1,217 bases of DNA from Escherichia coli (GTDB taxonomy: Bacteria; Pseudomonadota; Gammaproteobacteria; Enterobacterales; Enterobacteriaceae): the NCBI RefSeq assembly GCF_003334255.1, contig NZ_QOWU01000171.1; one strand, written 5' to 3'. Positions 1 through 1,217 of the stretch are shown one piece after another. The first letter of the stretch is position 1. Every line of letters begins with the position of its first letter. The position numbers and the translations under genes are program-made. The notes below the pieces were generated by a model that was given only the letters and a program-made list of their open reading frames with translations, did not search any database and was not told the origin of the DNA.

Positions 1-893
1 GCGCTGATTATCTGCTGCAGCATTTCTGCCGGTTTTTCGCACGGATGTTTCCCGGGATAGTACTGCACCGGTTTATGCGTCCACACATCGGTGTACGGCA
101 CCTGCACCGTCACACCAAAATACCGCCGCAGATGCTTATATTCACTCTGCAGTTCCGTATACTGCCGGTTCAGTTCACTGTATGTGCTGACCAGTTGGTG
201 ATGTGGCTTTTCCAGTTCTCCGCGCTGATGCTTCTCTTCTGCCACCCGGGCAAACAGCGCCTGTAATTTCAGATAATCGCTTTCGTCCGGTAGCTGCCAC
301 TGGCTGGCACTGAACCAGTGCGACACCATGTTTTTCTTTCCTGTGGCATCAGCAATCTGTTTTGCCGTTATCCCCAGGGCAGCACGCGCATCACGAAAGT
401 AAGAAATCAGCGGGGCCATCACATGCTGTTTCAGTGCCCTGCCCTTCGCCTCATACCCGGCATCTTTCGGGCGATACGGCCCCTGATAATGTTCCGCGAA
501 CAGAATGCGCTCTGTGGCGGGGAAATATGCCCTCAGGCTTTCCTTGTTGCACCCGTTCCAGCGTCCGGACGGCTTCGCCCAGATAATATGGTTCAGCACA
601 TTGAAGCGTTCACGCATCATGATTTCAATGTCAGACGCCAGGCGATGGCCACAGAACAGGTAAAGACTTCCGGCAGGTTTCAGCACCCGCCAGAACTGCG
701 CCAGACACTGGTCCAGCCATTTCAGGTAATCATCGTCGCCCTTCCACTGGTTATCCCAGCCCTCAGGCTTCACTTTAAAGTACGGCGGGTCCGTGACTAT
801 CAGGTCAACAGAATTTTCGGGTAACGACCGGATAAATTCCAGGCAGTCGGCGTTGATTAACTCACAACTGGATATTTTTACAGTATTAAGCAT
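1..893 (-). CDS. DNA methyltransferase, beta-class (motif IV before motif I), probably N6-adenine-specific; 3' end truncated by the window edge (297 codons visible). Start ATG at 893..891.
   Basis: Reverse-strand translation from ATG 893..891 is open for 297 codons to position 1 with no stop, and an in-frame TGA lies two codons upstream of the ATG. Residues 30-38 read DLIVTDPPY (DPPY at 780..791), the catalytic motif IV of amino-MTases. Residues 283-288 read HPCEKP (30..47), matching the HPxxKP element that in YhdJ/M.RsrI-type enzymes sits just before the FxGxG AdoMet motif, which would lie beyond position 1. The three plus-strand ORFs in the track are antisense to this frame. Confidence 0.9.
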   Translation of the reverse strand, partial: MLNTVKISSCELINADCLEFIRSLPENSVDLIVTDPPYFKVKPEGWDNQWKGDDDYLKWLDQCLAQFWRVLKPAGSLYLFCGHRLASDIEIMMRERFNVLNHIIWAKPSGRWNGCNKESLRAYFPATERILFAEHYQGPYRPKDAGYEAKGRALKQHVMAPLISYFRDARAALGITAKQIADATGKKNMVSHWFSASQWQLPDESDYLKLQALFARVAEEKHQRGELEKPHHQLVSTYSELNRQYTELQSEYKHLRRYFGVTVQVPYTDVWTHKPVQYYPGKHPCEKPAEMLQQIIS

Positions 894-904
894 GGATCAT
901 TAAG

Positions 905-907
905 CCT
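905..907 (-). promoter_or_regulatory. Weak candidate Shine-Dalgarno (AGG) for the methyltransferase, with a long 11-nt spacer to the ATG.
   Basis: Minus-strand sequence upstream of the ATG is GACAGGCTTAATGATCC-ATG. The only purine-rich SD-like triplet is AGG at 907..905, and its spacing is longer than optimal. Confidence 0.25.
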
Positions 908-925
908 GTCTCTGATAGGCTCATT

Positions 926-944
926 CTGCTTTTGCGCAAAGCAG
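926..944. promoter_or_regulatory. Imperfect 19-bp palindrome CTGCTTT-TGCGC-AAAGCAG in the methyltransferase leader; candidate operator or RNA hairpin.
   Basis: Seen directly: 926..932 ctgcttt is the exact reverse complement of 938..944 aaagcag, with a 5-nt centre tgcgc. It lies 33-51 bp upstream of the methyltransferase start codon. No T-tract follows on either strand, so it is not a terminator. Confidence 0.3.
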
Positions 945-1029
945 TGGGCCTGAGGTTTGCTTGTGATCCGGACGCATGAGCAGATGGCTGGTGAGTGCCC
1001 CTAACACCCACCAGCCGCCCATTTACCAC

Positions 1030-1057
1030 AAATAAAAAAGCCTTCACTGCGGAAGGC
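1030..1057 (-). terminator. Rho-independent terminator on the minus strand: 6-bp stem GCCTTC (1057..1052), 6-nt loop, stem GAAGGC (1045..1040), then TTTTTTATTT (1039..1030).
   Basis: Seen directly: plus-strand 1030..1057 is aataaaaaag-ccttc-actgcg-gaaggc, whose reverse complement gives a perfect 6-bp GC-rich stem followed by six T then ATTT. The stop codon of the upstream gene (1046..1044) sits inside the loop and 3' stem. There is no T-tract on the plus strand, so it is unidirectional. Confidence 0.6.
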
Positions 1058-1217
1058 GTCTGTAACAACCGAACTGATAGTCTGCCAGACCCGCCATAAC
1101 CAGCTGGGTCAGTATTAACTGGCAGCGTTCGCGTGAAAGGTAAGTATTCTGCGCAATCTCCCCGACTGTCGCCGGTTCGGTGGCACTTAATTCATTAAAC
1201 ACCACTCTGGCGGTTTC
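1044..1217 (-). CDS. 3' end of an upstream gene (57 codons visible plus TGA stop at 1046..1044); hypothetical protein with a winged-helix/HTH-like C-terminus, possibly a phage replication or regulatory protein. 5' end lies outside the window.
   Basis: Reverse-strand frame entering at 1217 is open for 57 codons (ETARVVFNELSATEPATVGEIAQNTYLSRERCQLILTQLVMAGLADYQFGCYRRLPQ*). The composition looks protein-like, with an HTH-like pattern (TVGEIAQNTYLSRERCQLILTQLVMAGL). The stop is immediately followed by a hairpin plus T-tract terminator on the same strand. Function is inferred only from the motif pattern. Confidence 0.55.
   Translation of the reverse strand, partial: ETARVVFNELSATEPATVGEIAQNTYLSRERCQLILTQLVMAGLADYQFGCYRRLPQ

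Follow-up and report, generated by a model that had tools for sequence, protein, structure and literature searches.

What is the purpose of the short palindrome that stands just upstream of a prophage-borne DNA methyltransferase gene in Escherichia coli, and on which strand does it act? The window analysed here, by which we mean the whole stretch of 1,217 nucleotides (nt) from contig NZ_QOWU01000171.1, carries the 5' part of that gene on its minus strand, and the palindrome occupies positions 926-944 (CTGCTTTTGCGCAAAGCAG); its two arms, at 926-932 and 938-944, match perfectly over 7 bp and enclose a centre of 5 nt. A preliminary description of the window, which gave the sequence and position of the palindrome exactly, proposed it as a candidate operator or as a hairpin of the leader RNA. 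In this study, we report that the palindrome belongs to a conserved and structured element of the late-operon leader of lambdoid phages, and that the comparative evidence points to the strand opposite the late genes. The reading that we favour, with somewhat more confidence than doubt, is that the palindrome encodes the 5'-terminal stem-loop of a small (~100 nt) cis-antisense RNA; it is most likely not a repressor site. The interpretation offered in the preliminary description is partly supported, and an RNA from the opposite strand is a possibility that it had not considered.

The position of the palindrome was confirmed as described, 33-51 bp upstream of the methyltransferase ATG (893-891, minus strand) and flanked by two GATC sites (895-898 and 965-968). 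Insertion of an extra T gives a 9+9 palindrome, CTGCTTT(T)GC followed by GCAAAGCAG. By itself the palindrome is not significant. Hairpins of this class (arms of at least 7 bp, loop of 3-8 nt) are expected 0.47 times per dinucleotide-shuffled window, with a probability of 0.33 of finding one or more, and 0.075 times in a 150-nt intergenic stretch (P = 0.06). As an isolated RNA hairpin it is of modest stability on the minus strand (-7.3 kcal/mol, z -2.2) and on the plus strand (-5.9 kcal/mol, z -1.5). The palindrome is taken to be real because it is conserved and covaries in homologues, and not on account of its own statistics.

A first survey covered the leaders of 80 viral contigs, among which few palindrome variants were present. 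A protein-anchored sample, unbiased with regard to the leader, comprised 80 loci with one genome per species. About 50 of the 80 carry a recognisable leader of ~140 nt, though the enzymes are only 55-80% identical. The element occurs in Escherichia, Klebsiella, Mixta, Trabulsiella, Kosakonia, Enterobacter, Citrobacter, Buttiauxella, Rosenbergiella, Hafnia, Yersinia, Ewingella, Providencia, Serratia and Vibrio. The arms of the palindrome differ between these lineages and compensate for one another, as in CUGCUUU/AAAGCAG, CCGCUU/AAGCGG, UUGCUG/CAGCAA and GCUC/GAGC. The covariance model R1 (146 positions) gave a 50-sequence alignment, A4, in which 27 of 36 pairs, the 7 of the palindrome all among them, are changed on both sides. 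For the helices P1, P2 and P3, none of 500 shuffles reached the observed covariation values. A further set, A5, was obtained by scanning viral contigs for a two-motif pattern and then with R1, and added 47 copies (34 distinct), many of them strongly diverged. The retrieval pattern fixes AATGGGCGAC and GCCCA and leaves the promoter positions described below unconstrained. Changes on both sides were found in A5 at 29 of the 36 pairs, and the palindrome pairs show many pair types. The covariation of this set, with a score of 0.42 against 0.14 for shuffles, is even stronger than that of A4. The palindrome is thus conserved in related prophages, the absence of which the preliminary description had named as a reason to abandon its proposal, and flagging it as regulatory was justified.

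The genes that follow the element differ from phage to phage. The first late genes after the A5 copies encode a lambda-S-like holin followed by an endolysin, other holins, or Mom-like DNA modification enzymes; a ParB-methyltransferase fusion and another DNA methyltransferase also occur downstream. In the Vibrio copies a Com-like mini open reading frame (ORF) precedes the methyltransferase. Since such different first late genes follow it, the element belongs to the late-operon leader of lambdoid phages and not to one gene. A small ORF for a winged-helix-like protein, which lies upstream of the element in the window, was found only with the M.EcoGII-type methyltransferase gene. As separate observations, the Vibrio-type loci (L159 1329-1439, L207 1831-1944, L216) place between element and methyltransferase a zinc-ribbon ORF of 36-38 amino acids (CxxC...CxxC), whose PHROG matches to Mu Com / translational regulator are weak (E about 5e-4), and these loci also have a winged-helix ORF upstream.

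The pairing statistics favour the plus strand of the window, opposite the late genes. In A4, 96.6% of the cells of P2 are paired when it is read as plus-strand RNA against 73.7% as minus-strand RNA; the corresponding figures are 98.6% against 84.1% for P0 (UGGGC:GCCCA, extended to 7 bp) and 89.4% against 79.1% for P3a. On the minus strand P2 has A.C mismatches in 9 different columns and G.U in one further column, and the plus-strand equivalents of the A.C cells are G.U pairs. As plus-strand RNA P2 shows almost no broken pairs and the interchange of GC, GU and AU that is typical of a genuine RNA helix. P2 is more stable as plus-strand RNA in 42 of 43 distinct sequences of A4 and in all 24 of A5, and P3 in 31 of 40 and 18 of 22, respectively. 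One compensatory change from G-C to A-U was seen in P0 (in L094). Consensus folding with RNAalifold gave -29.6 kcal/mol for the plus strand against -20.0 for the minus strand in A4, and -28.4 against -11.4 in A5. A MAFFT alignment of 41 plus-strand sequences, which was not fitted to the structure, recovers P0, P2 and P1 with 95.8% of cells paired, compared with 87.0% after shuffling and 29-50% in slid registers; none of 500 shuffles reached the observed value. Wobble counts in the helices P0' and P4 had first seemed to favour the late-gene strand, and this was reversed for P2, P0 and P3 when energy and pairing were assessed helix by helix.

Next to the palindrome, and at a fixed position, a conserved sigma-70-like promoter is predicted from the sequence of the plus strand. 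Immediately 3' of the palindrome the late strand carries invariant bases, GAGCCUAUCA, whose plus-strand counterpart is TGATAGGCT, an extended -10 of the form TGnTAnnnT. The columns of the protein-anchored alignment that do not vary correspond to TG, TA and CT, and those that vary correspond to the n positions. The -35-like hexamer, TGGATC, is the complement of the conserved CUGAUC adjoining the start codon, and the predicted +1, at about G928, falls within the left arm of the palindrome. A sigma-70 matrix was scored on both strands within +/-200 nt, with ~143 scoring intervals of 7 nt per element; the same matrix ranks lambda pR' first within its region. The interval in which the -10 ends 20-26 nt ahead of the TGGGC anchor is among the top 5% in 89% of 82 distinct elements, with a median rank of 1.7%. 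At least 12 different hexamer pairs occupy this position, several of them close to consensus, for example TTGATA-16-TACACT, TTGTCT-17-TATGGT, TTGTCA-18-TAGACT and TTGAGT-17-TATCGT, in addition to TGnTAGGCT. The distance from the -10 to the beginning of the hairpin is 6-8 nt in all lineages, which places the hairpin at the predicted start site. The inner 5 bp of the hairpin (the GCU..AGC core) are 92-93% paired and the two outer pairs just 57-65%; this poor conservation of the outer pairs fits a hairpin that begins at the predicted +1.

When modelled as RNA, the 99-nt plus-strand stretch 928-1026 folds at -41.8 kcal/mol into a structure that makes up 31% of the ensemble (z -3.26), against an ill-defined fold for the same stretch of the minus strand (z -1.8). 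A transcript from the putative sigma-70 promoter would start at about G928 and run away from the methyltransferase gene, toward the gene of the Q antiterminator. It would fold into the 5' hairpin (928-942) and then into a Y-junction in which P0 closes P2 and P1. Being fully complementary to the Q-dependent late leader, such an RNA would base-pair with late transcripts leaking through the terminators upstream, and the pairing would block or destroy them, setting a threshold on the toxic first late gene. Cleavage of the duplex by RNase III would be the obvious route, by analogy with OOP/cII and further antisense pairs. Massive late transcription driven by Q would then run over the antisense promoter and outnumber the antisense RNA. 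A safety catch of this kind would be in keeping with the genes that it would protect, those of a non-specific methyltransferase, Mom or a holin. We infer the production of the antisense RNA, its 3' end and its function from these models, and the RNAs of both strands may matter, each mirroring the other. Literature searches found no description of such an antisense RNA.

Several observations weigh against an antisense RNA. The helices P0' and P4, which exist only on the late-gene strand, pair better there: in A4, 95.0% of the cells of P0' are paired on the minus strand against 81.3% on the plus strand, and 83.4% against 76.6% for P4. P1 is strand-neutral in A4, the unbiased set, where 77.4% of its cells are paired on the plus strand and 80.1% on the minus strand and its stability is about equal (plus better in 16 of 35 distinct sequences); in A5 the plus strand is better in 25 of 28. 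The invariance of AATGGGCGAC and GCCCA in A5 is not evidence, being fixed by the retrieval pattern. The E. coli-lineage promoter is weak on paper (-35 3/6, -10 3/6 plus TG), and a generic promoter scan of the window did not call it. No canonical terminator closes the predicted RNA: GCCCA is followed by 2-4 U, partly paired in P0, and after this closing helix there is just GCCCAUUU(U). In phage lambda a remnant of P1 and P2 was found upstream of gene S (45,014-45,155; L287 1215-1356; 33 bits, E 4e-7), in a region that has neither the palindrome nor the invariant GCCCA nor the antisense promoter. Finally, the loop itself is symmetrical. Dyad symmetry runs through the centre of the palindrome in 96 of 97 sequences with ~20 apex types, perfect zero-spacer palindromes span 4-16 nt across homologues, and the centres seen include GCGC, CGCG, GTAC, GATC, TGCA, CTAG, AGCT, TCGA and ACGT, among others. 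A self-complementary loop is not explained by an RNA hairpin, and three origins are possible for it: an operator at the antisense +1, dimerisation of the RNA, or mutation by template switching.

The coordinates of the features discussed here are collected in Table 1.

Table 1. Features of the window, with position, strand and basis or remark
Feature	Position	Strand	Basis or remark
Palindrome CTGCTTT-TGCGC-AAAGCAG	926..944	unstranded	Sequence reading; compensatory changes at all 7 pairs
Whole conserved element, 147 nt, late-leader orientation	888..1034	minus	Covariance model R1, 136.8 bits, E 1e-28
Body of the predicted antisense RNA: 5' hairpin and Y-shaped three-way junction	928..1024	plus	3' end uncertain
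Core hairpin GCUUU-UGCGC-AAAGC, predicted 5' stem-loop	928..942	plus	Pairing conservation, fold
P0, 5' strand AGUGGGC	943..949	plus	Pairs with 1017-1023
P2 hairpin	955..985	plus	Strand-biased pairing, GC/GU/AU interchange
P1 hairpin, 12-bp stem	986..1016	plus	Repeat I1; 11 of 12 pairs changed on both sides
P0, 3' strand GCCCAUU	1017..1023	plus	Short U run after it
-35-like hexamer TGGATC	893..898	plus	Abuts methyltransferase ATG of the other strand
Extended -10 TGATAGGCT (TGnTAnnnT), predicted	913..921	plus	TG 913-914, TAGGCT 916-921
Rival long imperfect hairpin P4-P3a-P3b	894..970	minus	Capped by the palindrome; 3' strand ends at AUG
PF01555 DNA methyltransferase gene, 5' part, M.EcoGII family	1..893	minus	DPPY motif; runs off left end
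Winged-helix-like ORF, 65 amino acids, phrog_331, 3' part	1044..1217	minus	Stop codon 1046-1044
Intrinsic terminator after the small ORF	1030..1057	minus	Stem 1057-1040, T-tract 1039-1030

A live rival, to which we give a distinctly minority weight, is that the palindrome works in the late mRNA, as the apical stem P3b of a long hairpin, P4-P3a-P3b, which would limit translation or form an RNase III site and which a competing helix P2, together with P0', would turn into a conformational switch. This is the leader hairpin of the preliminary description, whose suggestion of an effect on translation remains in play; the pairing statistics and the promoter-like site favour an RNA from the opposite strand. 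The late strand is the one known, from gene order, to be transcribed, and the long hairpin is stable (-27.8 kcal/mol, z -4.5) and present in the minimum-energy fold of nearly all homologues. In P4, 83% of cells are paired and both partners have changed at 5 pairs, P0' (AUGGGC:GCUCAU) is 95% paired with compatible one-sided changes only, and these are the two helices that pair better on the minus strand. P2 excludes both P0' and P4, so that mutually exclusive helices with comparative support are available for a switch. The start codon directly follows the 3' strand of P4 in the methyltransferase and Mom-like contexts, and a translational lock would be sensible for M.EcoGII, which is toxic and silent in lysogens (PMC5778455). 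Against these points, P2 and P0, which besides P1 are the best-supported helices, pair far better on the other strand, and in the copies linked to holin genes ~45-55 nt separate the end of the hairpin from the start codon. The modelled accessibility of positions -14..+3 is only slightly below that of shuffled leaders (the fraction of shuffles at or below native is 0.07-0.77), which lends no clear support to sequestration of the start site. The 3' strand of P4 and the conserved bases that follow it occupy the same stretch as the predicted antisense promoter (-35, spacer and -10), and this overlap could be the reason why they are conserved.

It is improbable, in our judgement, that the palindrome is a DNA operator bound by a dimeric protein, whether the winged-helix protein, the methyltransferase or some other repressor at the antisense +1. 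The loop symmetry in 96 of 97 sequences goes beyond the needs of an RNA hairpin and, together with a nearly universal GCT...AGC core, would suit such a site, as would its placement at +1 to +16 of the predicted promoter, the classical operator position known from lac-type operators. Half-site sequence, total length and centre vary widely while complementarity is kept, and a one-base change of the centre separates close relatives (19 nt against 20 nt); this does not agree with the reading that the preliminary description had put first, a site at which the methyltransferase or the upstream winged-helix protein would bind as a dimer. The palindrome persists in holin- and Mom-linked phages that lack both the winged-helix ORF and the methyltransferase, so neither protein is likely to bind it, and Pfam support for the winged-helix ORF is weak (best E 0.005). 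A search of the prophage for further copies had been suggested; with as many as 2 mismatches allowed, its 40 kb contain none (chance expectation 0.2), leaving the one site, and R1 found exactly one match in the same 40 kb.

A transcription pause or termination hairpin within the late operon is very improbable. The late RNA would indeed form a stable hairpin here, in a region downstream of terminators that Q must override. The arms are, however, followed by no T-tract on either strand of the window, and a terminator scan of the window, which looks for a G+C-rich hairpin followed by a U-tract, did not call the palindrome, in line with the earlier judgement that it is unlikely to be a terminator. 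A real terminator lies 100 nt upstream, and this explanation leaves the strand bias and the promoter-like site unexplained. A chance palindrome without function, which would be expected in a third of shuffled windows, is refuted by compensatory conservation from Escherichia to Vibrio in two independently gathered sets.

If the antisense reading is extended beyond the window, a wider proposal can be made, although tentatively and with more doubt than belief: lambdoid prophages from Escherichia to Vibrio would carry a dedicated antisense RNA gene opposite the late leader that sets a threshold for late transcripts, the hairpin at its +1 doubling as an operator or as a site of RNA-RNA dimerisation. 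The lambda-like late operon is a textbook system for which the usual description names Q antitermination at pR'/tR' as the sole control. An element before the first late gene that is conserved, structured and apparently equipped with a promoter would add a layer of control after antitermination. The genes immediately downstream harm the host if they leak, being those of a non-specific adenine methyltransferase (PMC5778455), Mom-like enzymes and holins. If the proposal is true, the antisense RNA would affect the timing of lysis, DNA-modification enzymes and, in some Stx phages, toxin output.

The methyltransferase of the window is prophage-borne, about 350 amino acids long and, from PF01555 and its DPPY motif, probably a beta-class N6-adenine enzyme of the M.EcoGII type. 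M.EcoGII is non-specific, toxic on constitutive expression and silent in lysogens, and Escherichia phage 1720a-02 has been named as the carrier of a close homologue (PMC5778455). The window is 96.4% identical to that phage, ~96% identical to several Stx2-converting phages and 87% identical to phiP27. The gene order in these phage records is Q antiterminator, small ORF, methyltransferase, tRNAs, stx or place-holders, and lysis genes, and in several Stx2-converting phages the element is located between Q and the stx genes. A 181-nt leader query (window 880-1060) has matches in 2882 of 5426 complete E. coli genomes and is 100% identical in E. coli JE86-ST05. In the JE86-ST05 prophage a pR'-like promoter, TTGCAA-17-TATATT, stands directly after Q and is followed by a strong terminator, CCCGCCACTGGCGGG plus a T-run, this pair (L086 20492-20589) lying ~400 nt upstream of the element. 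Downstream of the strong terminator come the small ORF, the terminator seen in the window, the leader, the methyltransferase and tRNAs.

Some further features of these loci may be recorded. A weaker terminator-like site in JE86-ST05 (L086 20431-20447) brings the number of terminators between pR' and the methyltransferase to three. As in Stx phages, tRNA genes (Ile, Arg, Arg) lie between the methyltransferase and the stx position (L086 18664-18915, L001 5535-5788), and in JE86-ST05 genes of the TerB family and DUF3927 occupy the place of stx. The stop codon of the small ORF (1046-1044) sits in the loop of the terminator that follows it, a TAA/TGA-in-loop layout that is repeated in many genera, and a terminating ribosome could interfere with the folding of that terminator. 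The Pfam matches of this winged-helix ORF are weak, as mentioned above, and by analogy it might be a subunit of the methyltransferase rather than a repressor: another methyltransferase of an Stx phage, of the MT-A70 type, has a winged-helix partner in a 1:1 complex that directs the enzyme to rRNA (PMC10810198). That enzyme was rejected as a match for the methyltransferase of the window, being a different enzyme (MT-A70, DPPW motif) whose value is that of an analogy alone.

Pairing between the two GATC sites (GGAUCA/UGAUCC) makes up the base of the hairpin on the sense strand. The ATG-proximal site, which belongs to the predicted -35, is conserved, with TGATC in ~90% of sequences; the upstream one is frequently lost in homologues (GGTCA, GTTCA). 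A 12-nt inverted repeat (I2, 83% complementary; 925-936 with 973-984) joins the right half of the palindrome to an arm of P2 and is seemingly restricted to the E. coli lineage. The leaders of Xenorhabdus and Photorhabdus (L114-L146, L160) keep GGUGAAAUGG, a P1-like hairpin and AUUCGCC and are without the palindrome and GGCCCA; they represent a reduced variant with a weak R1 match (E 0.04-0.5).

Other identities for the element were also considered. Scans of the window against Rfam 15 (4227 models) at permissive E-values gave nothing better than E 0.75 or near a gathering score. There was no match on the minus strand of the element in the window, and the sole overlap with it was P26 on the plus strand (946-1016; 16.6 bits against a gathering score of 36). 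Rfam 15 scans of lambda and of the Vibrio, holin-linked and Mom-linked copies likewise gave no family. A sub-threshold match to the trpB motif (L200 3339-3434, minus; 34.6 against 59 bits, E 0.16), which lies across the 5' portion of the element, antisense to the late genes, is probably due to chance. tRNA-like, riboswitch and ribozyme identities were rejected, as no model matched and the element is not bound to one gene function. A leader peptide from the invariant AUG (ORF 921-1022, minus strand, 33 codons, MGGWWVL...) was rejected as well, and this ORF is probably non-coding: in homologues its length ranges from 3 to more than 47 codons, the peptide shifts with the covariation of P1, and one homologue has GUG.

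Among known systems, phage Mu com-mom provides translational control of a toxic DNA-modification gene. The element resembles it in that the start of a toxic modification gene adjoins a hairpin, that the Vibrio copies have a Com-like ORF and that others precede Mom-like genes. It differs in that the window has no com gene, the PHROG Com matches are weak, and the element also precedes holin genes. The late leader of lambda, for which RNase III processing sites were reportedly described by Daniels, Subbarao, Blattner and Lozeron in 1988 (Virology 167:568), is likewise a structured RNA between tR' and the first late gene.

Short transcripts from pR' to tR' form a second group, represented by lambda 6S RNA, by StxS of Stx phages (PMC7547250) and by P22E (PMC13397905). 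These too are small RNAs from the late regulatory region of lambdoid phages and are present in lysogens. They differ in being sense RNAs that start at pR' and end at tR'; the position of the element is beyond tR', and its predicted transcript comes from the opposite strand. P22E, upstream of the holin gene of P22, was considered as a counterpart and rejected, since it is a pLate-tLate RNA of unrelated sequence.

The cis-antisense control RNAs include RNA I of ColE1, CopA of R1, Sok of hok/sok, OOP of lambda, the anti-Q RNAs of lambda and P22 (paQ / 23as) and sar of P22. For P22, 23as, oop and sar are listed in PMC13397905. The predicted RNA is like these in its length of ~100 nt, its several stem-loops, its full complementarity and its predicted promoter opposite the 5' region of the target, and the product of that target is, as in the known cases, harmful if mistimed. 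It is unlike them in lying in a Q-dependent late-operon leader, just before the first late gene, and in its predicted architecture, a 5' hairpin followed by a Y-junction closed by the invariant UGGGC:GCCCA, with no clear intrinsic terminator. This location is new for the kind, the predicted RNA is uncatalogued in Rfam 15, and the known kind to which it comes closest is the cis-antisense control RNA.

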